Shown piece by piece: positions 5,528 through 58,886 of a DNA stretch of 64,000 nt (the first letter of the stretch is position 1; the number at the start of each line of letters is the position of its first letter). The translations under genes and the position numbers were made by a program. Source of the stretch: an uncultured Bacilli bacterium (lineage in GTDB: Bacteria; Bacillota_I; Bacilli_A; RF39; UBA660); assembly GCA_934098745.1 (NCBI GenBank), contig CAKOPG010000009.1, positions 51-64,050 on the forward strand, read 5' to 3'. The notes beneath the pieces are model-generated. The model saw only the letters and a list, made by a program, of their open reading frames with translations, was not told where the DNA came from and made no database searches.

Positions 5528-6589
5528 ATGATAAATAGACTTGAAGCTATTCAAAATAGATATGATGAAATATCAAAAGAATTAACCCAAGATGAAGTAA
5601 TCAAAGACATAAAAAAAATGACCGAATTATCTAAAGAACAAAGAAGACTAGCCCCTACTGTTGAAATTTATCAAAGATATAAAACCATTTTAAGTGATTT
5701 AGAGACTGCTAAAGAAATGTTAAATGATAAAGATATGCAAGAATTTGCCAAAGAAGAAATTTCATCTTTACACAAACAAAAAGAAAGCCTCGAAAAAGAA
5801 TTAGAAATCCTTCTTTTACCACATGACCCTAACGATGAAAAGAATGTTATTGTTGAAATTCGTGGTGCTGCTGGTGGTGATGAAGCTAACATCTTTGCTG
5901 GTGACTTATTTGATATGTATAATCATTATATTAGTAACTTTGGTTGGAAAATAGAAGTATTAAATGAAGAACCTGGTTCAGCTGGCGGATATTCGCAAAT
6001 AGAATTTATGATAAAAGGTGAGGGGGCTTATTCCAAATTAAAATACGAGTCTGGTGCCCACCGTGTTCAAAGAGTACCTGAAACCGAATCAGGAGGCCGT
6101 GTTCATACCTCAACAGCTACAGTTTTAGTAATGCCTGAAGCCGAAGAATTTGATTATGAACTAGACGAATCCGAAGTAAGAATAGATATTACTAGAAGTA
6201 GTGGTTGTGGAGGTCAAGGCGTAAATACAACTGACTCAGCTGTAAGACTTACCCATATTCCCACAGGTATTATAGTTTATTCTCAAACAGAACGTAGCCA
6301 GATAAAAAATAAAGAAAAAGCCTTCAAAATATTAAAAACAAGATTGTATGACTTAAAACTAAGAGAACAAGAAGCCGCTAATGCTTTAGAAAGAAAAAAT
6401 AAAATAGGTACTGGTGATAGATCAGAAAAAATAAGAACCTATAATTACCCCCAAAATAGAGTTACTGACCACCGTATTGGCTTTACATCTATGAATCTAG
6501 ATCGTATTATGGCCGGAGACCTGGGAGTAATAATTGAGGCTCTAATTAATGAAAACCAAAGAATTGAGCTTGAACAAAGCGAAATATAA
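5528..6589 (+). CDS. prfA: Peptide chain release factor 1
   Basis: GGQ motif (SGCGGQGVNTTDSAVRLTH) and an RF1-type PxT tripeptide (VPETES). RBS AGAGAGGA before the ATG at 5528. Confidence 0.95.
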   Translation: MINRLEAIQNRYDEISKELTQDEVIKDIKKMTELSKEQRRLAPTVEIYQRYKTILSDLETAKEMLNDKDMQEFAKEEISSLHKQKESLEKELEILLLPHDPNDEKNVIVEIRGAAGGDEANIFAGDLFDMYNHYISNFGWKIEVLNEEPGSAGGYSQIEFMIKGEGAYSKLKYESGAHRVQRVPETESGGRVHTSTATVLVMPEAEEFDYELDESEVRIDITRSSGCGGQGVNTTDSAVRLTHIPTGIIVYSQTERSQIKNKEKAFKILKTRLYDLKLREQEAANALERKNKIGTGDRSEKIRTYNYPQNRVTDHRIGFTSMNLDRIMAGDLGVIIEALINENQRIELEQSEI

Positions 6590-7322
6590 TGAAGATTTAA
6601 TATATCTAAAAAAATATATTAAAGAATATAATTTAACTGCCTCAGACTATCAAAAGTATCTAGAAAAATTGCCTACATCTCTTCCAATTCAATATCTAAT
6701 TGGTAACGTTAACTTTTATGGTTATCAAATAAAAGTAAATGAATCAGTTCTAATTCCTCGTTTTGAAACCGAACTTTTAGTAGAAAAAACTATAAATAAA
6801 ATAAATAGATATTTTCCTAGTAAAAAAATAGATATTATAGATCTTGGTACTGGTAGTGGTTGCATAGCTATAACCCTAAAAAAAGAGTTAAATTCTAATG
6901 TTTATGCTCTAGATATATCTCTTGAAGCCCTAAACATTGCTAAAGATAATGCCAAATTAAATAATGCTGAAATAACCTTTATCAATGATGATATGGATAC
7001 ATATAAAGAAAAAAAGTTTGATGTAATTATTTCTAACCCCCCATATATTAACCCTGATGAAGAAATAATGCCTCTAGTAAAAGATAATGAACCAAGTATA
7101 GCTCTCTATGCTAAAGATAAAGGATTATATCACTATGAACAAATAATTAAAAATTTAAAGTATCTTACTAAAGAAAATTATCTATTAGCATTTGAAATTG
7201 GTTATAATCAAGCTGAATCAATTAAAAATATTGCTAATAAATACTTAACAAATATAAATATATCTCTTGAAAAAGATTATCAAGATAAAGAACGTTTTAT
7301 ATTTATAACTAATATTAAATAA
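6549..7322 (+). CDS. prmC: Release-factor glutamine N5-methyltransferase
   Basis: SAM motif DLGTGSGCIA and the NPPY motif. Overlaps and follows prfA, as in many bacteria. Confidence 0.85.
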   Translation: MKTKELSLNKAKYNEDLIYLKKYIKEYNLTASDYQKYLEKLPTSLPIQYLIGNVNFYGYQIKVNESVLIPRFETELLVEKTINKINRYFPSKKIDIIDLGTGSGCIAITLKKELNSNVYALDISLEALNIAKDNAKLNNAEITFINDDMDTYKEKKFDVIISNPPYINPDEEIMPLVKDNEPSIALYAKDKGLYHYEQIIKNLKYLTKENYLLAFEIGYNQAESIKNIANKYLTNINISLEKDYQDKERFIFITNIK

Positions 7323-47183: not shown

Positions 47184-47933
47184 CTAGCTATTTGTTTTCC
47201 TTTTTTGAATATTATATGCCACTTTAAGAAGTAACTTCGTAGGTAAGAATCTACTAAAAAATATTCCCAATTTCATATACATACCCGGAATAATTATTAA
47301 CTTACCCTTAAACATCTTATCAATAGCATACCTAGCAACATATTGTGCATCCAAAGATTTCATATTAAATCTTACATGTGCTCTCTTATTAAAATTCGTA
47401 TCCACAGGACCTGGGCATAAAACTGAAATATGTTTATTTTCCTTAGATCTCCTTAACTCCTCATATAATGCTAAAGAATAACTACACACATAACTTTTCG
47501 TTGCATAATAAGTACTCATTAACGGCCCACCTTTCATAAGCCCCGCTGAACTAGATACATTTAAAATGTATTTAACATTCTTATTATTTATAAATAATTT
47601 TGTTAAAGTATGTAAGCATTTAACATTTAAGTCAATCATATTTAATTCAATATCCAAATTATCTACTTGATAATTACCATAAGCTCCAAAACCAGCATTA
47701 TTAATAACTATAGAAATATCCTGATCCTTTACTTCATCATATAACTTATAACAGTTACCAATATCAGATAAATCGTACGGAAATATCTTGATATTTGTCT
47801 TAAGTCTATTCTGAAGTTCTTTTAATTTATCTTGACTCCTTGCTACCAAAATTAAATCATATCCCAATTCCGATAAATAAATTGCCATTTCCTTACCTAT
47901 ACCAGAACTAGCCCCTGTTATTAACGCTTTCAT
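47184..47933 (-). CDS. Short-chain dehydrogenase/reductase
   Basis: TGASSGIGK cofactor motif, NNAG, and the catalytic YYATK. Confidence 0.85.
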   Translation of the reverse strand: MKALITGASSGIGKEMAIYLSELGYDLILVARSQDKLKELQNRLKTNIKIFPYDLSDIGNCYKLYDEVKDQDISIVINNAGFGAYGNYQVDNLDIELNMIDLNVKCLHTLTKLFINNKNVKYILNVSSSAGLMKGGPLMSTYYATKSYVCSYSLALYEELRRSKENKHISVLCPGPVDTNFNKRAHVRFNMKSLDAQYVARYAIDKMFKGKLIIIPGMYMKLGIFFSRFLPTKLLLKVAYNIQKRKTNS

Positions 47934-47960
47934 ATCAAATCACCTCACTATTATTATACA

Positions 47961-48039
47961 CTATTGTTTAATTTTTAAAAATAGTATATAATACTTAACA
48001 AGTGAATAATTACATCAAAATTACAAAAAATATTACTAG
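47961..48039 (+). repeat. Left direct repeat of the retron/Rpn islet (decayed copy of the rluB promoter and 5' end)
   Basis: 47961-48000 is identical over 40 bp to 50422-50461. The next ~39 bp match about two-thirds, and the rluB ATG is mutated. Confidence 0.9.
47964..47992 (+). promoter_or_regulatory. Sigma-A promoter inside the left repeat, oriented into the retron
   Basis: TTGTTT (47964-47969), 17-nt spacer, TATAAT (47987-47992). The same element lies upstream of rluB in the right repeat. Confidence 0.6.
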
Positions 48040-48088
48040 ATTTAATAGTTTAATTATTGAAAGAACCATCATCTAAATAGTAAAATTA

Positions 48089-48264
48089 TATATAGCAATA
48101 GCGTGTGGATAAATATCCCCTTTAACGAGTCGTTAAAGCACCTAATTATTAAAGACATGAATTATAATTTTCCATAGGACCTAACTATGGCTAGCCATAG
48201 ACACTTCATTACATTACGTTAAGTCCAATTCCAAATTATAATATCATAAAGTATTGCTTATATA
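48089..48264 (+). ncRNA. Retron msr-msd non-coding RNA
   Basis: a1 TATATAGCAATA (48089-48100) is complementary to a2 TATTGCTTATATA (48252-48264) with one bulge. TAGCG follows a1. Hairpins lie at 48107-48118 and 48120-48138 (CTTTAACG-AGT-CGTTAAAG). A long imperfect hairpin spans 48161-48242 (ATTATAATTT/AAATTATAAT) with the apex palindrome CTATGGCTAGCCATAG. Confidence 0.7.
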
Positions 48265-48281
48265 CCGAGGAGGTAATAAAT

Positions 48282-49253
48282 ATGTGGAAATATCTGACTA
48301 AAGAAGCCGAAATCAAATATTTATTATCTATTCATTTAATTGATGGCACTAGTGATAAAGATATCTTAAATAAAATATATACAATAAGTAACAATAAAGA
48401 GAAAAATTATAAAATATATAAAATAAAAAAGAAAAATGGTCATTATCGTACTATTTATGCACCTAAACCTAATCTCTTAATTATTCAAAAAAATATCTTA
48501 AAAAATATTCTTGAAAAGAGAAGTATTTCTAAATATGCTAGAGCTTATAAAAAAGGAATAACCCTAGTTGATAATGCCAAGGAGCATCTAAATAAAAAAA
48601 TAATTCTTAAATTAGATATAAAAGATTTTTTTAACAGTATCCAATATATTCAGATATATAATACCTGTTTTCCTCAAGAATTATTTCCTAAATCCATTGG
48701 AACTCTTCTTACAAATTTATGCACTTGTTATGATATTCTTCCTCAAGGGGCACCAACCTCATCATATATTTCTAATCTTGTTATGTATAATTTTGACATA
48801 ATCATAGGGACATTTTGTGACAGTAGAAATATTGCCTACACAAGATATTGTGATGATATGACCTTTTCTGGAGATTTTGATTATCATGAAATAATTAATC
48901 TTGTAAAACAAGAACTGACAAAATTAAATTTATCTCTAAACATGAAAAAAATTCATGTAATTACCCAAAAGAGTAGGCAAATAGTTACCGGTGTAGTCGT
49001 CAATAAGAAATTACAGGTAGCTAAATATTATCGTCAAGAAATAAGAAAAAATGTATACTATATAAAAAAGTATGGCCTTATTTCTCATTTAGGAAGAACA
49101 AATAACAAAATGGCCCCAGTTACTTACCTAAATACCTTATTGGGAAAGATTAATTATGTTTTGCAAATAGATAAATCTAACAAAGAATTTATAAATTATA
49201 AAAAAGAAATCCTAAAAACAATTAAAAACATTCATAATAAAAAAATAATTTAG
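48282..49253 (+). CDS. Retron-type reverse transcriptase
   Basis: 323 aa. NAKEH (NAxxH), QGAPTSSYISN, RYCDDMTFSG (YxDD) and RQIVTGVVVN (VTG) motifs. RBS GAGGAGG. Confidence 0.85.
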   Translation: MWKYLTKEAEIKYLLSIHLIDGTSDKDILNKIYTISNNKEKNYKIYKIKKKNGHYRTIYAPKPNLLIIQKNILKNILEKRSISKYARAYKKGITLVDNAKEHLNKKIILKLDIKDFFNSIQYIQIYNTCFPQELFPKSIGTLLTNLCTCYDILPQGAPTSSYISNLVMYNFDIIIGTFCDSRNIAYTRYCDDMTFSGDFDYHEIINLVKQELTKLNLSLNMKKIHVITQKSRQIVTGVVVNKKLQVAKYYRQEIRKNVYYIKKYGLISHLGRTNNKMAPVTYLNTLLGKINYVLQIDKSNKEFINYKKEILKTIKNIHNKKII

Positions 49254-49336
49254 TTATCTCTCAACGCTATTGTTTTGTTAGTCATTTGACATATTTTTAT
49301 GTAAAATAATTAAATTTATTAATTTATAAAAATTAG

Positions 49337-49377
49337 AAAAACAGTTAAAATACAATATAAATATTTAACTGTTTTTT
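49337..49377 (+). terminator. Rho-independent terminator after the RT gene
   Basis: AAAAACAGTTAAA-(14 nt)-TTTAACTGTTTTT. Confidence 0.7.
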
Positions 49378-49510
49378 AATATCTGTTTACTTCATATTAC
49401 AGAATTTAATAAAATGATAAACTTATTATTCAGAAATACCATATTTTTTACAAAGAGTTAATTTTGACAATTTTTTTTAATTTTGTTATAACCAAAAAGA
49501 AGGAGGCTAT

Positions 49511-50326
49511 ATGGCTAAATTTTACAAAATAAGTACAGACGGTATGTTTAAATCTATCTTTGAAAACGAAAACAATAAGCATCTATTAGAAAGAATAATT
49601 GAAGAAGTAATTAAAGAAAAAGTAATTATTACCAAATTACTAGTACCAGAACTAAGAAAAAATAAAATAACTGTAAAAGGAAAGACTTTAGACGTATTAG
49701 TAAAAACAGATAATAAAGAAATTAATATAGAGATTAACTCTTCAATGTATGATGATATTAAAAGAAGAAATGCTGGATTTATTTTCAGAAGATATAGTGA
49801 TTCCGTTGGTATAGGGGGAAGTTATGATAAAATGCCAGGGTTTATTCAAATAAACTTTTCAGCTAATTTAGGAAAGAATTATCCCATGGTAGCGGAATAC
49901 AATTTATATGATGAAAAGGCAAAATTAATGTTCATTAACAACTTCAAAATATATGAAATAAATCTTGAAAAGTATAAGAAGTTTTGCTATGATAATAATA
50001 TCTTAAGTCTCATATCAATGCTCGATATGGACTATGGAGAATTAATAAATGTTAAGGGTGATAAAGATATGGAAAAATTAAGAGATGAAGCACTAACATT
50101 AAATAATGATTCAGAACTTTTAAATTATTTGTCAGATGAAGAGGAAGAAAAATTAATTAAAAATACATACATATCAAAGGGCATTGAAAAAGGTATTGAG
50201 CAAGGTGTTGAGCAAAATAAAATAGAAATGGTTAAAAAGATGCTAAAAGAAAACATCGATATTAGCATTATATCTAGAATATCTGGATTAAGCAAAAGTG
50301 AAATAGAGAAGATTAGAAAAAATTAA
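49511..50326 (+). CDS. Rpn/YhgA-like PD-(D/E)XK nuclease family protein (TIGR01784-type putative transposase)
   Basis: N-terminal DGMFKSIF...LL and KGKTLDVLVKTDNKEINIEINSS (D...ExN core in place of ExQ/K). The C-terminal GIEKGIEQGVEQNKIEMVKKMLKENIDISIISRISGLSKSEIEKIRK repeat-plus-HTH tail is typical of the family. Own promoter: TTGACA (49464-49469), 17 nt, TATAAC (49487-49492). Confidence 0.75.
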   Translation: MAKFYKISTDGMFKSIFENENNKHLLERIIEEVIKEKVIITKLLVPELRKNKITVKGKTLDVLVKTDNKEINIEINSSMYDDIKRRNAGFIFRRYSDSVGIGGSYDKMPGFIQINFSANLGKNYPMVAEYNLYDEKAKLMFINNFKIYEINLEKYKKFCYDNNILSLISMLDMDYGELINVKGDKDMEKLRDEALTLNNDSELLNYLSDEEEEKLIKNTYISKGIEKGIEQGVEQNKIEMVKKMLKENIDISIISRISGLSKSEIEKIRKN

Positions 50327-50421
50327 TCTTTTCCATGAAGTAATACATAATTGCGTTAGTCCTCTGGGATAATCTAAAATTAATCCTTGTAGTTACTCTT
50401 CTTACCAATTCATTGTATCTG

Positions 50422-50500
50422 CTATTGTTTAATTTTTAAAAATAGTATATAATACTTAACAGGTGAACAAGTATGGAAAGATTACAAAAAGTAATAGCTG
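50422..50500 (+). repeat. Right direct repeat (functional rluB promoter and start)
   Basis: Partner of 47961-48039. Contains the rluB -35/-10 elements, RBS and first codons. Confidence 0.9.
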
Positions 50501-51189
50501 ACTTAGGATATTCTTCAAGAAGAAAAGCCGAAGAACTAATCCAAGAAGGCAAAGTTAAAGTAAATGGAATAACCATTACAAAACTAGGTACTAAGGTAAA
50601 AAGTAGCGATACTATTGAAGTAGAAAACACTATTTTAGATAACAATAAAAATTATGAATATTATCTTTTGAATAAGCCCCGTGAAGTAATTTCTTCTGCT
50701 CGTGATGAACACGGTAGAACAACCGTAGTTGATTTAATAAAAACAAGCCAAAGAATATATCCTATAGGAAGACTTGATTATGACACTACTGGAATAATTC
50801 TTTTGACAAATGATGGTAATCTTGCTAACAAACTAATGCATCCATCTAGTAAAATTGAAAAAAAATATGTAGCTAAAGTAAGTGGTTTGGTTACTGGGTA
50901 TGATATAAAAAGGCTTCGCGAAGGCGTTATCGTAGATGGCAAAATTACTGCTAAAGCCAAAGTAGATTTGAAAAAATATGATAAAAAAACAGATAAATCT
51001 CTTGTAGAATTGACTATTCATGAAGGTAGAAACCATCAAGTCAAAAAAATGTTTGAAGCCATTAATCATGATGTTATAAAATTAAAAAGAGAAAAATACG
51101 CTAATCTGGATTTAACTGGTTTAAAACCTGGAGAATATCGTCATCTAACTAACAAAGAAATAGCTGTTTTATATTCATTAGTGAAGTAA
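50473..51189 (+). CDS. rluB: Pseudouridine synthase, RsuA/RluB family
   Basis: N-terminal S4 domain (RLQKVIADLGYSSRRKAEELI) and the catalytic RLDYDTTGIILLTNDG. Confidence 0.9.
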   Translation: MERLQKVIADLGYSSRRKAEELIQEGKVKVNGITITKLGTKVKSSDTIEVENTILDNNKNYEYYLLNKPREVISSARDEHGRTTVVDLIKTSQRIYPIGRLDYDTTGIILLTNDGNLANKLMHPSSKIEKKYVAKVSGLVTGYDIKRLREGVIVDGKITAKAKVDLKKYDKKTDKSLVELTIHEGRNHQVKKMFEAINHDVIKLKREKYANLDLTGLKPGEYRHLTNKEIAVLYSLVK

Positions 51190-51191
51190 AA

Positions 51192-51686
51192 ATGTTAAAT
51201 AGTATTATTTTCTTAGACATCGATGGTGTTTTAAATTCAGATAGTACCTTTAAAGAAAACGAAGGCTTTAGTAAAGCTATTTCAAAGTTACCAAAAAATA
51301 GCTCTCCTTCACCCCTTTATTTAAGTCAAATAAATGATTTGGATAATAATAAAATATCTCTAATTAAAGAATTATCCCATGTTACAAATTCCAAAATTGT
51401 TATCACTTCAACATGGAGAAATCTAAAAATATGGCCATTAATAGAAGAATATCTAATTACCAAAGGTTTGCCCGTTATTGATACAACCCCATATATAGAG
51501 AATAATCGTAGCAAAGAAATAGCTACATATCTAAAAGAACATCCGGATATTTCCAATTTTATAATTATTGATGATGACTTCTTTCCCGGATATGAAGAAT
51601 ATTGCGATAAATTTATTCATCCTAGTTTTTATCAAGATGGCTTTACCGAAGAACATCTAGAATTAGCTAAAACTCTCTTAAAGTAA
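51192..51686 (+). CDS. HAD-like hydrolase domain protein
   Basis: IIFLDIDGVLNS motif I and IIIDDD motif IV-like. 164 aa. Confidence 0.5.
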   Translation: MLNSIIFLDIDGVLNSDSTFKENEGFSKAISKLPKNSSPSPLYLSQINDLDNNKISLIKELSHVTNSKIVITSTWRNLKIWPLIEEYLITKGLPVIDTTPYIENNRSKEIATYLKEHPDISNFIIIDDDFFPGYEEYCDKFIHPSFYQDGFTEEHLELAKTLLK

Positions 51687-51829
51687 TTAATATTAAATAA
51701 TAATAAATTAATAAAAAAAATCAAGAGTTCAAATACAAACTTACTTTACTCTTGATTTTTTATCTATTCTTATTTAAATAAAATCCACTTATCAACGTTT
51801 AAACATCTATCTTCTCATTAGTTGATAAA

Positions 51830-52426
51830 TTACTTATTCTTTGCTTTTTTTCTTTTTTTATCTTTATCCATATCAATACTAATATATTTTATTAAAGTTA
51901 TCACTTGACATATAATCGTAACAATTGAAGATATAAAAATAACTTTAATATTGGTTTCAGGAATGTACACTAAAATTAATGTTATTGATAATAGTGTCGT
52001 TTTAATTTTTCCTATAACAGTTGATCTCGGATGATTTCCTTTTGCCTCGGATAACAAATTGGTATAACTAATAGCTATTTCCAGTATCAAATTAAATAAT
52101 AAAATATAACATTCAAATACAGTTGGAATTACCAAACTCATCGCAAATATTTTATCGCAAACTGCATCGAGTTTTACACCGAACTCCGATACATAATTAT
52201 ATTTTCTAGCTATTCTCCCATCTAAAAAGTCTGTTATAGCAAAAAATATCAAAGCTCCAATAGCAATCTTTATTTCCCCTAAAAGCATTGATGGAATAAT
52301 TATAAAAGGGGATAATGCCCTAGAAAAAGTTAACATATTAGGAATTTGCCTTTTAATATTACCATTCTTAATATCTTTTATCTGTAATTTAAAATCTTTA
52401 AAAAACTCTTTTATCATTTTTTTCAT
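51830..52426 (-). CDS. CDP-alcohol phosphatidyltransferase family protein
   Basis: DFLDGRIARK...GVKLDAVCDK matches D(x2)DG(x2)AR...G(x3)D(x3)D. Multi-TM. Confidence 0.8.
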   Translation of the reverse strand: MKKMIKEFFKDFKLQIKDIKNGNIKRQIPNMLTFSRALSPFIIIPSMLLGEIKIAIGALIFFAITDFLDGRIARKYNYVSEFGVKLDAVCDKIFAMSLVIPTVFECYILLFNLILEIAISYTNLLSEAKGNHPRSTVIGKIKTTLLSITLILVYIPETNIKVIFISSIVTIICQVITLIKYISIDMDKDKKRKKAKNK

Positions 52427-52622
52427 CTTAACACCCCACAAACTACTTCCTTATCAAATTATCCTTATTATATCCAATTAAAATTCAAAAATCAATTACC
52501 AATTCTATTTTTCCTCATCTTTCTAATAAATCTATATATTAAATACTAAATAAAGTATATTTATCCCTCTTAAAGTTATCATAACTACATAACCATAGTT
52601 ATTTTAAATATAAGAAAAGAGA

Positions 52623-52883
52623 CTATTTCGTCTCTACAATTAACTTAATAGCAGTCCTTTCATCTCCATCTATCACAATATCTGTAAATGCTGGAATACA
52701 TACCAAATTTTTACCAGATGGTGCCACAAACCCTCTTGCAATTGCAATTGCCTTAATAGCCTGATTAAGTGCTCCGGCTCCAATAGCCTGTATTTCTACA
52801 GAGTCTTTTTCTCTAAAAACATTAGCAAGCGCTCCGGCTACTGAATTAGGATTAGACTTTGTTCCTACTTTAAGTGTTTCCAT
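52623..52883 (-). CDS. spoVS: Stage V sporulation protein S
   Basis: 86 aa. METLKVGTKSNPNSVAGALANV...IQAIGAGALNQAIKAIAIARGF is near-canonical SpoVS. Confidence 0.9.
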   Translation of the reverse strand: METLKVGTKSNPNSVAGALANVFREKDSVEIQAIGAGALNQAIKAIAIARGFVAPSGKNLVCIPAFTDIVIDGDERTAIKLIVETK

Positions 52884-52999
52884 TGTTTTCACATTCCTTT
52901 CTTTATACACTTAACTATATGATATTATTTTAAAAAAGATACTAACAATTTACATTTGCCCTCTAGTTTGCTATAATTAATTATAAGGAGATGATTGTT

Positions 53000-55411: not shown

Positions 55412-57247
55412 ATGTGTGGTTTTGTTGGCTTCGTAGGCAAACAAAAAGTTCCTACTAAAAACAAAATTATTAAATCTATGGCTGACGCTATAATTCATCG
55501 TGGACCAGATAGTGATGGTTACTATACAGATGACTTTGTTGCTCTAGGATTTAGAAGATTATCTATAATAGATTTAGATGGTGGTTCCCAACCGATATAC
55601 AACGAAGATAATACTAAAGTCATTATCTTTAATGGAGAAATTTATAATTATAAAGAGTTAAAAGCTGATTTAATTAAAAAAGGCCATATCTTTAAAACTA
55701 ATACTGATACCGAAGTAATCTTACATGGTTATGAAGAATACCAAGAAAAACTCTTTAAAAACCTTCGTGGTATGTTTGCTTTTGTCATATATGATATAAA
55801 AAATAATACCCTAGTTGGTTGCCGTGATCATTTTGGTATAAAACCATTCTATTACTATAAAAATGGTAAAGAATTTATGTTTTCCTCAGAAATTAAAGGT
55901 ATGATTCCTCATCCTGATTTTAAAAAAGAAGTAAATGATAAAGCCCTAAAAATGTATTTAATATTTCAATATTCTGTTTTTGAAGAAACATTCTTTAAAA
56001 ACGTTTATAAATTAAAACCAGGTCATTATTTCAAATATCAAAACGGAGTTCTTACTATAGAAAAATATTTTGATATTTTATACGAAAAAGAAAATAAATC
56101 TTATGAAACTTATAAAAAAGAAATAAAGGACGTTTTAGCCTCATCTATTAAATACCATCAAATAACTTCCGATGTTGAAGTAGGTTCCTATTTATCTGGT
56201 GGTGTTGATTCCTCATACGTCGTTAGTGTTGCTAAACCTGATAAAACATTCTCCGTAGGTTTTGATGAATCAGGATTCGATGAAACCAAAATGGCTCAAG
56301 AGTTTTCCGATTTAATGGGTGTAAAAAATTATAGTAGATATATCTCTAAAGAAGATTTCTTTAAAAGTCTTCCTAAAGTAGAATATTATACAGATGAACC
56401 TCATGCCAATCTTTCAACCGTTCCCTTGTTATTCTTATCTGAATTAGCCAGAAAACAAGTAAAAGTTGTCTTATCAGGTGAAGGTTCTGATGAAATGTTT
56501 GGCGGTTATAACGAATACCTCGAACCCCTTCCTGTAAAAATATACATGAATATGCCAGGTTTTATCAAAAAGCCAATAGCCAGTATTGCTAAAAAACTTC
56601 CCCATTTTCCTGGTAAAAATACCCTTATAAAATATAGCCATTCATTTTGCGAAAGATATATTGGTCATGCCAGTATCATGACTGAAGATGAAGCCAATAA
56701 CATTTTAGCTGATAGATTGAAAGATAATATGACGACAACCGATGTCTTAAAACCGTACTATGAAAAAGTAAAGCATGAGAATGATATTGTAAAAAAAATG
56801 TATATTGACATGCATTTCTGGCTTCCCCAAGATATCCTTCTAAAAGCTGATAAAATGACTATGGCCAATTCTATTGAACTAAGAGTTCCCTTCCTTGACA
56901 AAGAAGTATGGGAAGTTGCTAGAAAAATACCTACCAAATATCTAATAAGAAAGAAGAAAACTAAAGAAATATTCCGTAGCGTAGCGGATGAAGTAATGCC
57001 TGATGAATGGTCTAAACGAAGAAAATTAGGTTTCCCTGTACCATTTTCTAAATGGATTAAAGAAGAAAAATATTATAATCTTATTAAAGAGGCCTTTAAC
57101 CAAGATTATGTCTCTAAATATTTTAATAAAGAATATATCAATAAATTATTAGAAGATCATTATCATAATATCGCTAATAATGGACGAAAAATATATAATA
57201 TTTATATCTTCTTAGTATGGTATAACGTATATTTTAGTGAGGCTTAA
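55412..57247 (+). CDS. asnB: Asparagine synthase (glutamine-hydrolysing) family amidotransferase
   Basis: N-terminal MCGF nucleophile and PP-loop SGGVDSS. 611 aa. Confidence 0.9.
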   Translation: MCGFVGFVGKQKVPTKNKIIKSMADAIIHRGPDSDGYYTDDFVALGFRRLSIIDLDGGSQPIYNEDNTKVIIFNGEIYNYKELKADLIKKGHIFKTNTDTEVILHGYEEYQEKLFKNLRGMFAFVIYDIKNNTLVGCRDHFGIKPFYYYKNGKEFMFSSEIKGMIPHPDFKKEVNDKALKMYLIFQYSVFEETFFKNVYKLKPGHYFKYQNGVLTIEKYFDILYEKENKSYETYKKEIKDVLASSIKYHQITSDVEVGSYLSGGVDSSYVVSVAKPDKTFSVGFDESGFDETKMAQEFSDLMGVKNYSRYISKEDFFKSLPKVEYYTDEPHANLSTVPLLFLSELARKQVKVVLSGEGSDEMFGGYNEYLEPLPVKIYMNMPGFIKKPIASIAKKLPHFPGKNTLIKYSHSFCERYIGHASIMTEDEANNILADRLKDNMTTTDVLKPYYEKVKHENDIVKKMYIDMHFWLPQDILLKADKMTMANSIELRVPFLDKEVWEVARKIPTKYLIRKKKTKEIFRSVADEVMPDEWSKRRKLGFPVPFSKWIKEEKYYNLIKEAFNQDYVSKYFNKEYINKLLEDHYHNIANNGRKIYNIYIFLVWYNVYFSEA

Positions 57248-57248
57248 C

Positions 57249-58886
57249 ATGGGAAAACTAAAAAAATCATCCTTTTTAGAAGGCGCTTTCATTGCTACTC
57301 TTTGTATTATTATAACCAAAGTATTGGGAGTTCTCTATGTTATTCCTTTTTACAAAATAATTGGTAAACAAGGTGGTACTCTATATGGCTACGCCTATAA
57401 TATTTATAATGTTTTTCTAATCATCTCTTCCGCCGGTATTCCCCTAGCTATTAGTAAATTGACAAGTGAATATAATACCCTAAAAGAATATGATAAAAAA
57501 ACACGAATGTACCACTTAGCTACCTATATCATTATGACCTTCTCAATATTATCATTTATTATTTGTTTTACCTTTGCTCCTAATTTATCCAACCTAATAA
57601 TTGGTGAATTAGAAGGTGGTAATACCATAAAAGATGTTACTTTCGTTATTCGCTTAATATCCTTTGCCCTTCTAGTCATCCCTTTTCTAAGTATAGAAAG
57701 AGGATATCTCCAAGGACATAGACATATCTTAGAACCATCTATTAGTCAAGTAATCGAACAAGTAGTAAGAATAGCTGTCATCTTAGTAGGTAGTTATGTT
57801 TGTACTTACACCTTAAAATTACCAACAAGATATGGTGTAGGTGTATCTGTCTTTGCTGCCTGCATTGGTGGTATAGCAACATTCATATATCTTCACTCCA
57901 TTGTTAAAAAAAATAAACATCAAATAGGTCTTGATAATAAAGTAGCTAAAGATAAAACAAGAGATAAGGAAATAATCAAAAAAATAGTAGCATATTCCAT
58001 TCCTTTTATCATTATCAATTTAGCCAATACGCTATATACATCAACAGATATGATACTAGTAATACGTACACTTCCTAAATTAGGATTTAGTGCTACTGAT
58101 ACCGAGTTTGTCTCAAGCGTATTTACTACTTGGGGCGTTAAATTTAATACCATCATTACTTCTATTTCTACTGGATTAATAGTTAGTTTAATACCTAATA
58201 TGGTTAAAGATTATACTGAAAAAAATTATCAAGCTGTTAATAATAATTTTAATAAATGCCTAAAAATAATTCTCTTCATTATCGCTCCATTAGCTATTTT
58301 TCTAAGTTGCATGTCATCAAGCATGTGGAACGTTTTCTACGGATCAAGTACCATAGGACCAAAAGTAATTAAATATACCATTCTAGTAACAATATTTGAC
58401 TGCTTATATATGGTAATTAACTCTTTATTGCAGAGCCTAAATAAATCTAAAATGATATATTTAAGTGTTATAAGTGGCCTAATAATAAATCTTGCATTAG
58501 ACATTCCCATGATGTATCTCTTTAACGCTCTACAATTACCGGCATACTATGGAGCTATCTTTGCGACATTCTTAGGATTTCTCGTATCAAATACCATAAG
58601 CATTATCTATCTAAATAAAGAAATGTCTTTTAAATATCATGAAACTATTAAAACTATTCCAAGATTTATCATATCTATAATAGTCCTAATAGTTACAATC
58701 AGTTTATTAAAGATTGTTCTTCCAATAGATAGTCCAAATCGATTAATCCAAGTTATTAATCTCTTAATAACAGGTCTAATATCTTTAGGTTCATATCTTT
58801 TAATCAACTTTAAATATCTTAAAGAAATATTACCTCAAAAAGTATTAAAAAAACTACACCTAGATTTTCCTAAAGAAAATAATTAA
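57249..58886 (+). CDS. MOP-superfamily flippase (MurJ/SpoVB/YtgP-like)
   Basis: About 14 TM helices and an N-terminal SFLEGAFIATLCIIITKVLGVLYVIPF pattern. Overlaps the asnB stop. Confidence 0.7.
   Translation: MGKLKKSSFLEGAFIATLCIIITKVLGVLYVIPFYKIIGKQGGTLYGYAYNIYNVFLIISSAGIPLAISKLTSEYNTLKEYDKKTRMYHLATYIIMTFSILSFIICFTFAPNLSNLIIGELEGGNTIKDVTFVIRLISFALLVIPFLSIERGYLQGHRHILEPSISQVIEQVVRIAVILVGSYVCTYTLKLPTRYGVGVSVFAACIGGIATFIYLHSIVKKNKHQIGLDNKVAKDKTRDKEIIKKIVAYSIPFIIINLANTLYTSTDMILVIRTLPKLGFSATDTEFVSSVFTTWGVKFNTIITSISTGLIVSLIPNMVKDYTEKNYQAVNNNFNKCLKIILFIIAPLAIFLSCMSSSMWNVFYGSSTIGPKVIKYTILVTIFDCLYMVINSLLQSLNKSKMIYLSVISGLIINLALDIPMMYLFNALQLPAYYGAIFATFLGFLVSNTISIIYLNKEMSFKYHETIKTIPRFIISIIVLIVTISLLKIVLPIDSPNRLIQVINLLITGLISLGSYLLINFKYLKEILPQKVLKKLHLDFPKENN

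Follow-up and report, generated by a model that had tools for sequence, protein, structure and literature searches.

How a predicted nuclease gene came to stand directly behind a retron, and whether it is the effector of that retron, is the question raised by this locus. The window (the whole stretch of DNA that was analysed, 64,000 nucleotides) carries an islet bounded by direct repeats, and the only credible genes between the repeats are a retron reverse transcriptase (RT; 48282 to 49253) and an Rpn-like open reading frame (ORF; 49511 to 50326). Thus, the original prediction that the Rpn-like gene is the sole partner within the islet holds. The same prediction offered two readings of the arrangement: either the retron and the nuclease are a new pair of retron and effector, or they are separate defence modules that travel as companions. 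We consider it quite probable that the ORF is an autonomous single-gene Rpn cassette whose neighbour, an Ec107-like orphan retron, has long been resident, and that the ORF is not the effector of that retron. All features described below lie on the forward (+) strand.

A retron beside rluB

The direct repeats that bound the islet, at 47961 to 48006 and 50422 to 50467, are identical at 45 of 46 positions. The right repeat is the working promoter region of rluB, which starts at 50473, and the left repeat is a copy of that region that probably drives the retron. The 46-nt sequence is single-copy in the syntenic spacer between the SDR gene and rluB of loci L010 and L120, and such an empty spacer was seen in related species only. 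When the exact RluB and SDR proteins were used to look for a copy of the site that lacks the islet within the species of the window, only contigs that bear the islet or that break inside the 46-nt repeat were returned. Immediately after the left repeat, 48007 to 48044 corresponds to a decayed copy of the beginning of rluB, with its ribosome-binding site, its start codon and some 11 of its initial codons, from which the ATG has been lost. This segment matches 50468 to 50505 in register at 25 of 38 positions, where ~13 would be expected from base composition, and with it the flanking duplication grows from 46 nt to as much as 84 nt. The idea that the 3' part of rluB had also left a remnant on that side of the retron was rejected, as free local alignment of 48007 to 48084 with five rluB genes was no better than that of shuffled sequences, and only the in-register 5' extension stands. 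In the rest of the window, PADLOC returned generic-domain matches only. The surroundings are housekeeping genes and not a defence island, and the retron is chromosomal and outside any prophage.

The RT is a protein of 323 aa that belongs to the Ec107-like (orphan) clade. Its best match was PADLOC RT_Ec107-like (3.7e-122), it matched Pfam RVT_1 at 8e-22, and the motifs NAxxH (N98, H102), YxDD (Y189, D191, D192) and VTG (T236, G237) were invariant in 45 sequences. Directly upstream, at 48086 to 48265, is a predicted retron noncoding RNA (ncRNA; msr-msd) in which a2/a1 terminal pairing encloses a long hairpin and a pair of short stem-loops; the structure was predicted for 48086 to 48270. The predicted fold has a minimum free energy of -34.7 kcal/mol (z = -2.6), and no shuffled sequence equalled its stability. 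Moreover, nucleotide homology between retron loci starts at 48075 to 48120, upstream of the RT, such that ~165 to 200 nt are conserved. No Rfam match was found between 46000 and 52000.

The five nearest relatives of the RT are 66 to 68% identical to it, which falls inside the range shown by the housekeeping proteins around them (63 to 86%, with SpoVS aside at 97 to 100%). In all five, the RT gene comes immediately after rluB in a syntenic block that has no Rpn gene. In the window, the retron is on the other side of rluB than in all its relatives. A scan of viral contigs gave no close relatives of the RT, only four distant matches at 26 to 39% identity. Vertical descent appears to have kept the retron at rluB throughout a genus-level clade, and without any partner gene. 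Among 80 related RT loci, the 247 neighbouring proteins fell into 188 clusters, each with four members or fewer and all housekeeping, and the 32 co-oriented downstream neighbours were likewise unrelated housekeeping proteins. Consistent pairing of RT relatives with a different known effector had been named in advance as the outcome that would speak against Rpn. That outcome was not literally what was found, as the relatives have no conserved partner at all, in agreement with the description of the Ec107 branch as one without an associated protein (Mestre et al. 2020, PMC7736814). Retron-Eco5 (Ec107), of the orphan branch of clade 2 (PMC7736814), is like the retron of the window a compact ncRNA and RT with no conserved accessory protein, and both are chromosomal and non-prophage. 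The two differ in host, which is a low-G+C gut Bacilli lineage here and Enterobacteria for Retron-Eco5, and the window's retron is further distinguished by its apparent retention beside rluB and by the Rpn cassette directly 3' of it in this genome.

A predicted Rpn nuclease and its cassette

The ORF at 49511 to 50326 begins with ATG and encodes 271 aa, and by profile matches and alignments it is a genuine Rpn-family predicted DNA nuclease of the PD-(D/E)XK type, as had been proposed. It matched NCBIfam TIGR01784, named [quoted passage not shown] at 58.9 bits (cut-off, 52.1), from residue 9 to residue 268 of 271 and from position 2 to position 273 of the 273-position profile. It also matched Pfam PF12784 (PDDEXK_2) with an E value of 5.9e-13 and 49.5 bits (cut-off, 27.4). 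The Pfam scan gave no match at an E value of 0.1 or below to PF04754 (Transposase_31, YhgA-like sensu stricto), the family of E. coli RpnA-E, and therefore the "YhgA-like" label once given to the ORF holds only if it is taken to mean the broader Rpn/PD-(D/E)XK group. In alignments of 27 to 44 homologues, D61 and E74 were invariant and D10, N76 and R86 were invariant or nearly so. These residues match D11, D63, E82, Q84 and R94 of RpnA in order and spacing, including the step of 10 residues from E-x-N to R here and from E82-x-Q84 to R94 in RpnA. The third catalytic position is N in place of the Q of RpnA, and N76 is itself conserved within the subfamily.

A model of the protein (pLDDT 85) has helices and strands in the order expected of the fold. 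Its alpha-beta-beta-beta-alpha-beta core, in which D61 and E74 lie on strands next to each other, is followed by one long helix and two short helices. Foldseek matches to the PDB, which holds no full-length Rpn structure, were weak (all with E values above 0.001), and most were PD-(D/E)XK nucleases (for example McrC, R.BspD6I, cap-snatching endonucleases and Can2). The tail gave a weak alignment (E value, 0.18) with 7TH0, the crystal structure of RpnA-S. The identical protein is present in several independent metagenome assemblies. Relatives were absent from the viral contigs scanned, a plasmid scan gave two weak matches, and a plasmid homologue annotated by PGAP bears the same TIGR01784 name.

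Upstream of the gene, 49296 to 49510 contains a hairpin, a second and weaker inverted repeat, a promoter and a ribosome-binding site. The hairpin (49337 to 49377; -11.4 kcal/mol, z = -3.2) is terminator-like and carries a T-run, the promoter (49464 to 49492) is of the sigma-70 type and reads TTGACA-17 nt-TGtTATAAC with an extended -10 element, and the ribosome-binding site is GGAGG (49502 to 49506). In an alignment of nine loci, the promoter and the ribosome-binding site fall in conserved columns, and the hairpin, the -35 element, the extended -10 element and the ribosome-binding site are all kept upstream of eight solo Rpn homologues. Moreover, 6 of the 17 hairpin pairs show compensatory changes at other Rpn loci. 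A terminator between the two genes and a promoter belonging to the nuclease had both been foreseen, and both are borne out by this conservation. We note that a simple consensus scan overlooked the hairpin and the promoter because of the rules it applied to G+C content and to T6.

The ends of the cassette are definable only through loss of homology. In a blastn comparison of 134 loci, homology to the solo Rpn loci L097, L109 and L095 began at 49295 to 49303, and homology to solo Rpn loci stopped at 50330 to 50332, such that the islet divides into a retron module (48075 to 49250) and an Rpn cassette (~49296 to 50332). The spacer that follows the Rpn stop codon and leads up to the right repeat (50333 to 50421) had no blastn match in any fetched locus. 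Neither an inverted-repeat pair nor a short target-site duplication was seen at the cassette ends (~49296 and 50332). Judged from these comparisons, the hairpin and the promoter between RT and Rpn are parts of the Rpn cassette that accompany solo Rpn genes elsewhere, and the hairpin is predicted to insulate Rpn from upstream transcription. The Rpn gene of the window has every feature found in solo copies.

The C-terminal part of the protein contains the four-residue repeats GIEK-GIEQ-GVEQ, GIEKGIEQGVEQ (50180 to 50215; residues 224 to 235). In the predicted structure, the repeats are carried by a helix of residues 201 to 246, and a three-helix tail lies C-terminal to them. Among Rpn homologues, the number of copies at the same place ranges from one or two (L092) to ~20 (L107), and C-terminal four-residue repeats that vary in number are a known property of Rpn proteins (PMC10400941). 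By analogy, the GIEK/GIEQ/GVEQ stretch would be the hypervariable oligomerisation region of the family.

Where an internally translated C-terminal fragment might begin was also considered. The internal Met named in the original prediction, M240 in KIEMVKK (50228 to 50230), is an unlikely start and was rejected, as just 8 of 44 homologues have Met at this position, which lies C-terminal to the repeats, and no sequence resembling a Shine-Dalgarno element is suitably spaced from it. Two other candidates fit better. M187 (50069 to 50071), with a predicted product of 85 aa, occupies a position that is Met in 37 of the 44 homologues, and GGTGAT or GGAGAT (GGWGAT) ends 6 to 7 nt upstream of it in 18 of 18 loci. 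Codon 207 (50129 to 50131) is TTG in the window's gene; the position is Met in 22 of 44 homologues, and many solo copies read TTA. It precedes the repeats by 17 residues, within the 8- to 20-residue rule of Zhong et al. 2023, and no Shine-Dalgarno-like sequence was found upstream of it in the window's gene. We infer that M187 is the most likely internal start and that codon 207 is the alternative. Homologues of 159 to 181 aa that begin exactly at M108 might have been taken for natural stand-alone C-terminal proteins, or for evidence of an internal start, but locus L126 rules this out. There, the frame of the short form runs upstream to residue 46, and the "164-aa" forms of Rpn are 5'-truncated pseudogenes.

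The features of the cassette are those of known Rpn systems. E. coli RpnA-E, the plasmid protein RpnP2 and C. difficile Rpn (PMC5350276; PMC10400941) have an N-terminal PD-(D/E)XK core, as is predicted for the protein of the window, with matching catalytic positions. They also share with it a long C-terminal helix that bears KGIE-like four-residue repeats of hypervariable number, and a small tail made of helices. Moreover, both the known genes and the one in the window are single-gene units that are horizontally mobile without inverted repeats or target-site duplications, and both lie near other defence genes. Besides the third catalytic residue, the differences are in family, as the window's protein is in PF12784/TIGR01784 and E. 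coli RpnA-E are in PF04754, and in the short product, which is the predicted 85 aa from candidate M187 versus ~49 aa for RpnA-S. Finally, the window's cassette has a conserved terminator-like hairpin upstream, and we found none described for E. coli rpn genes in a literature that was not searched systematically.

Association of RT and Rpn genes

An effector would be expected to belong to a family recurrently associated with the RT clade and to share a transcription unit with the RT. An Rpn-like gene adjoined the RT in only 1 of the 80 related RT loci, and here the two genes are separated by the conserved hairpin with its T-run and by a separate promoter, although read-through is possible. Viewed from the nuclease, an RT was near Rpn in 1 of 25 Rpn loci, with a housekeeping gene in between. 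An RT is absent from all four of the closest Rpn loci, and the nearest relatives adjoin IS256, IS3 or tsaD. Contexts of solo copies included tsaD, Rpn and a pilin gene (L117), Rpn and IS256 (L116), Rpn and IS3 (L119), VanZ, an Rpn remnant and GATase (L126), and yneF and Rpn (L105). Contigs of 2.5 to 2.8 kb that contain the closest Rpn homologues were considered as possible islets of RT and Rpn like L001 and were rejected, as they carry Rpn by IS256, IS3 or tsaD. L051 offers an independent further instance, in which an RT 58% identical to that of the window is followed by a similar hairpin and then by a distantly related, frameshifted Rpn gene in the same orientation. The gene order of L051 could hint at a preference or synergy between RT and Rpn.

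These frequencies, together with the five syntenic relatives that lack Rpn, argue against the proposal of a new retron-effector pairing. The other proposal, that two independent defence modules travel together, is favoured by the separate homology modules, the solo Rpn cassettes and the partnerless retrons. In the tripartite retrons, for example Eco1/Ec86 with its nucleoside deoxyribosyltransferase-like effector or Ec78 with Septu PtuAB (PMC12819146), the RT and ncRNA also adjoin a potentially toxic protein. Their effector, however, is conserved across the RT clade and lies in the same operon, whereas the Rpn gene is sporadic and stands behind a terminator-like hairpin and an independent promoter.

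Origin and role of the Rpn gene

Because the Rpn gene has a hairpin, promoter and ribosome-binding site of its own, occurs alone elsewhere and is absent from the closest relatives of the retron, the likeliest reading is that it is a defence gene that neighbours the retron and does not act as its effector. As toxin-antitoxin and antiphage genes, rpn genes are complete in themselves, are found clustered with other defence genes and hitchhike (PMC10400941). The present one is most probably an autonomous defence gene of this kind, which encodes an Rpn toxin and its intragenic antitoxin and came to lie next to a retron already in residence. The best reading of its position is that mobile defence genes have accumulated at a permissive site. 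By analogy with characterised Rpn proteins (Kingston 2017; Zhong 2023), full-length Rpn would be a Mg2+-dependent, largely sequence-unspecific DNA endonuclease that acts through D10, D61, E74, N76 and R86 and that would be toxic when unrestrained. Restraint would probably come from a C-terminal fragment made from an internal start (likeliest M187, alternatively codon 207), which may bind the full-length protein via the long helix that bears the four-residue repeats, and the number of repeats may set the pairing of the short form with the long form. Phage infection would then upset the balance and release DNA cleavage in an abortive-infection-type defence.

Rpn might instead be a newly recruited cis effector that makes the retron a new type, in which the RT and msDNA hold the nuclease inactive until phage tampering with the msDNA frees it. 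Only the RT and Rpn genes lie between the repeats. The Ec107-like retrons have no known effector (PMC7736814), and orphan retrons may therefore use one in trans or in cis. The order of RT and then Rpn recurs in L051, where the RT is of an unrelated lineage and the Rpn gene of a distant subfamily. There is also precedent in retron Ec78, which co-opts Septu PtuAB, an otherwise autonomous nuclease system (PMC12819146). The pairing, however, is missing from 79 of the 80 related RT loci and from all five nearest syntenic relatives, and the nearest Rpn relatives have no RT. Moreover, a conserved hairpin and a separate promoter stand between the genes in a layout identical to that of solo copies, and no feature of a solo copy has been lost. 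We therefore regard recruitment as unlikely. A related idea, to which we give a slim chance, is that the cassette was captured at least twice independently (in the window and in L051) 3' of orphan Ec107-like retrons, as a missing effector or co-worker, with msDNA modulating the nuclease.

The repeats around the islet raise a different possibility, that Rpn is mainly a recombination-promoting nuclease ("putative transposase") that made or moved the islet and is no defence gene. Such an activity would account for the flanking direct repeats, and overexpression of RpnA increases RecA-independent recombination. The target-sequence duplication of 46 nt (up to 84 nt) around the region is unusual, and the retron is on the opposite side of rluB from that in all relatives. 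An RT-only retron at L055, however, has a similar 46-nt flanking repeat and no Rpn, terminal inverted repeats and short target duplications were not seen at the cassette ends, and Zhong et al. found no evidence of autonomous rpn transposition (PMC10400941). A role in making the islet likewise has only a slim chance of being correct. Finally, the gene may be an inert passenger, an intact-looking remnant that is unexpressed or inactive, and many homologues are indeed decaying (the 5'-truncated "164-aa" forms, as in L126, and the frameshifted copy of L051), while the third catalytic position is N and not Q or K. Yet the ORF is full length with equivalents of all five catalytic positions, N76 is conserved in the subfamily, the upstream hairpin, promoter and ribosome-binding site show no sign of decay, and the identical protein recurs across independent assemblies. 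That the gene is inert is very improbable.

Why the pairing matters depends on whether it is functional. If it were, Rpn would be the first effector for orphan Ec107-like retrons, and the islet would define a new retron type and give orphan retrons a function. The evidence points to the ordinary case, in which an Rpn defence/toxin-antitoxin cassette of one gene, of a kind already known, lies beside a retron. A portable Rpn cassette of low-G+C gut Bacilli is now delimited, with its putatively insulating hairpin, promoter, ribosome-binding site and gene, and M187 or codon 207 provides an improved candidate for the start of the intragenic antitoxin. Ultimately, with a partnerless orphan retron apparently kept beside rluB throughout a clade, the question of the mode of action of such retrons becomes sharper.

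Composition of the islet and conservation of the pairing

Two genes occupy the islet, which is bounded by a 46-nt direct repeat (47961-48006 and 50422-50467, identical at 45 of 46 positions) and is slightly richer in A+T than its surroundings (24% versus 28% G+C). One encodes the retron RT (48282-49253; best PADLOC model RT_Ec107-like, 3.7e-122), in which the NAxxH, YxDD, and VTG positions are invariant across the RT alignment. The 185 nt upstream of the RT gene give an a1/a2-closed fold (z = -2.6) comprising a long hairpin and two small stem-loops, and this region is conserved at the nucleotide level in other retron loci. The other is the Rpn gene (49511-50326, plus strand, 271 aa). No third credible ORF was found between the repeats, and Rpn indeed stands as the only partner gene in the islet; neither gene has a second copy within the window. 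Further along, two neighboring asparagine-synthase-like ORFs (55412-58886) are probably the source of strong PADLOC "mad8" matches (2.8e-34), which we read as cross-matches of generic domains within a housekeeping region.

The RT-Rpn pairing is not conserved. A scan with the RT alignment, restricted to one genome per species, gave 80 loci (47 to 66% identity) in MAGs of gut Bacilli or "Tenericutes," and a profile of Rpn homologues found a neighboring Rpn-like gene at one of them, locus L051. Proteins flanking the RTs (n = 247) fell into 188 clusters, the biggest of which had four members and comprised LexA and other housekeeping proteins common to syntenic genomes. Moreover, the 32 co-oriented genes directly downstream of RTs encoded unrelated housekeeping functions (CofD, NusB, SecG, FtsA, NUDIX, GNAT, and others). 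The clade to which the window RT belongs is without a partner gene, in line with Mestre et al. 2020, whose Ec107 branch had no protein associated with it (PMC7736814). When 25 metagenomic Rpn loci were inspected, an RT was present at L105 alone, on the strand opposite Rpn and with a small yneF-like housekeeping gene between. At that locus (1-1500), the retron borders on an ORF that resembles the C terminus of IS200/IS605 TnpB, and the yneF-like gene separates it from the divergently oriented Rpn cassette. The closest Rpn homologues are 54 to 60% identical and have other neighbors: an IS256 transposase (L116), an IS3 transposase (L119), or tsaD on one side and a pilin gene on the other (L117 and L118).

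Comparison of the islet with all fetched loci by blastn resolved two separate homology blocks. Retron loci match 48075-49250. For solo Rpn loci, the match begins at 49295-49303 and ends at 50330-50332, and this second block takes in some 210 nt that precede the Rpn start. An alignment of this upstream region from nine loci conserves a hairpin with a T-run (49337-49377; -11.4 kcal/mol, z = -3.2), in which compensatory changes keep pairing in 6 of 17 pairs, a promoter (49464-49492; TTGAC(A/T) -35, 17-nt spacer, TGnTATAA extended -10), a GGAGG ribosome-binding site, and a second, weaker inverted repeat. The latter reads TTACAG…CTGTAA in most cassettes and is weaker in the window. The terminator-like hairpin and the second inverted repeat both lie upstream of the promoter (window 49296-49460) and could act as operators for the helix-turn-helix-like tail of Rpn in addition to a possible insulating role. 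Thus, the terminator and the promoter originally predicted between RT and Rpn are real, but they belong to a portable Rpn cassette that is self-insulating from upstream transcription; an operonic effector would need the reverse. The window cassette is no different in architecture from the solo copies that occur elsewhere. Of the two readings first offered, two independent modules is supported, and a new retron-effector pairing is not.

The Rpn protein and its candidate internal starts

The Rpn ORF matches Pfam PF12784 (PDDEXK_2; E 5.9e-13) and, end to end, NCBIfam TIGR01784 ([quoted passage not shown]; 58.9 bits against a curated cutoff of 52.1), consistent with its prediction as an Rpn-like PD-(D/E)XK nuclease; the Pfam scan gave no match to PF04754, the family of E. 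coli YhgA/RpnA-E. In alignments of 27 to 44 homologues, D61 and E74 are invariant, and D10, N76, and R86 vary little or not at all. By order and spacing, D10/D61/E74/N76/R86 correspond to D11/D63/E82/Q84/R94 of RpnA, mutation of which abolishes RpnA activity (PMC5350276), and the sole difference at these positions is N where RpnA has Q. An AlphaFold model based on the 44-sequence alignment (pLDDT 85, pTM 0.72) shows helices and strands in the order of a PD-(D/E)XK core, after which come a long helix (201-246) and two short ones. Foldseek matches to the PDB were all weak (E > 0.001), the majority being PD-(D/E)XK nucleases, and the RpnA-S crystal structure 7TH0 aligned weakly with the tail (E 0.18). 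Within the long helix lies the four-residue repeat GIEKGIEQGVEQ, whose copy number among homologues runs from one or two to about twenty, and such variable-number repeats are exactly the hallmark that Zhong et al. 2023 give for Rpn proteins (PMC10400941). The homologues at L107 (about 5700-5900) and L106 represent the extreme end of this variation, with roughly twenty tandem GIEQ-type repeats versus three in the window.

In the system of Zhong et al., a short C-terminal protein neutralizes the full-length nuclease, and its internal start lies 8 to 20 residues before the repeats (PMC10400941). The internal Met originally singled out as a start (M240, in KIEM) is not a good candidate: it is located after the repeats, is Met in 8 of 44 homologues, and lacks a usable ribosome-binding site. 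M187 is shared by 37 of 44 homologues, and GGTGAT or GGAGAT precedes it by 6 to 7 nt in 18 of 18 loci examined, but the amino acids G-D are conserved at the same place, and thus these nucleotides do not count as independent evidence. Codon 207 precedes the repeats by 17 residues; it is Met in half of the homologues (22 of 44), TTG in the window, and TTA in many solo copies. An internal antitoxin is plausible for this family, and the window Rpn may have one. About eighteen database entries of 159 to 181 aa (P0162-P0180) begin at the M108 position; they are gene calls on 5'-truncated Rpn pseudogenes (L126 2860-3495) and do not form a short family of their own. Separately, three syntenic rabbit-gut MAGs carry, 3.5 kb from the RT, minus-strand ORFs of ~130 aa (L012 1745-2140, L013 1981-2394, and L015 2022-2408) that match the Rpn profile solely in the C-terminal tail (positions 214-277) and could be RpnS-like or helix-turn-helix proteins that stand alone.

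History of the islet and the relationship of its genes

The five nearest RT relatives (66 to 68% identity; L010, L120, L123-125, L133, and L134) share with the window the synteny block lysS-dcuC-SDR-rluB-…-spoVS-alr-ATP-grasp-asnB. In all five, the retron comes immediately after the stop codon of rluB, nothing occupies the SDR-rluB spacer, and the Rpn gene is absent. Flanking proteins (DcuC, SDR, RluB, Alr, and ATP-grasp) are 63 to 86% identical, with small SpoVS alone far higher (97 to 100%). Because RT identity falls inside the range of most of these proteins, the retron seems to be an old resident of the neighborhood, and the Rpn gene seems to have been added in a lineage-specific way. The window lineage (47184-52900) differs from L010, L120, L123, L133, and L134 in having the retron 5' of rluB and, in the interval from rluB to spoVS, additional HAD-like and CDP-alcohol phosphatidyltransferase genes.

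The flanking repeat is single copy in syntenic relatives, where it is the rluB promoter region. The left copy runs on in register for 38 nt, and this extension, in which the ATG is gone, is the counterpart of the ribosome-binding site, start codon, and opening 11 codons of rluB. Divergence over the whole stretch (47961-48044 versus 50422-50505) is uneven: the first 46 nt are 98% identical (45/46) and the next 38 nt 66% (25/38). The pattern could have arisen by an 84-nt duplication in which selection acted on the promoter part, by tandem duplication of PrluB-retron and then deletion, or by import of the segment from a relative, the crossover lying in the promoter. At L055, a retron of this clade that consists of the RT only is flanked by a 46-nt direct repeat (one mismatch; 5695-5740 and 7057-7102, 1,362 bp apart), an architecture like that of the window without the Rpn gene.

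How the two genes are related is best explained, we think with good confidence, by Rpn being an autonomous cassette that neighbors the retron by accretion. Real functional coupling is very unlikely. Coupling as an idea is not absurd, as retron Ec78 co-opts Septu PtuAB (PMC12819146), and L051 (385-2426) is a second, independent RT-hairpin-Rpn arrangement, in which the RT is 58% identical to that of the window and a perfect 10-bp hairpin with a T-run precedes a co-oriented Rpn gene. The L051 Rpn, however, is only distantly related (phmmer E 4e-8) and has a frameshift or stop near 1772, which could be a MAG assembly error. Given Rpn density and roughly 800 kb sampled, roughly 0.1 to 0.5 chance adjacencies are expected; the single case observed apart from the window is not significant. 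No report of a retron-Rpn/PDDEXK_2 link was found in the literature searched. Less probable still is a mainly recombinational role for Rpn in building the islet: the RT-only L055 has a comparable repeat, and thus such repeats do not need Rpn. Least probable is that Rpn is an inert passenger; the gene is intact, its catalytic positions are conserved, and it has expression signals of its own.

As an autonomous cassette, Rpn would, judging from its characterized family, encode a toxic, largely unspecific DNA endonuclease that a C-terminal fragment might hold back via the repeat-bearing helix, and it may act in abortive-infection-type phage defense. For the retron, the comparisons suggest a partner-less element that may have been kept vertically across a clade of gut Bacilli.
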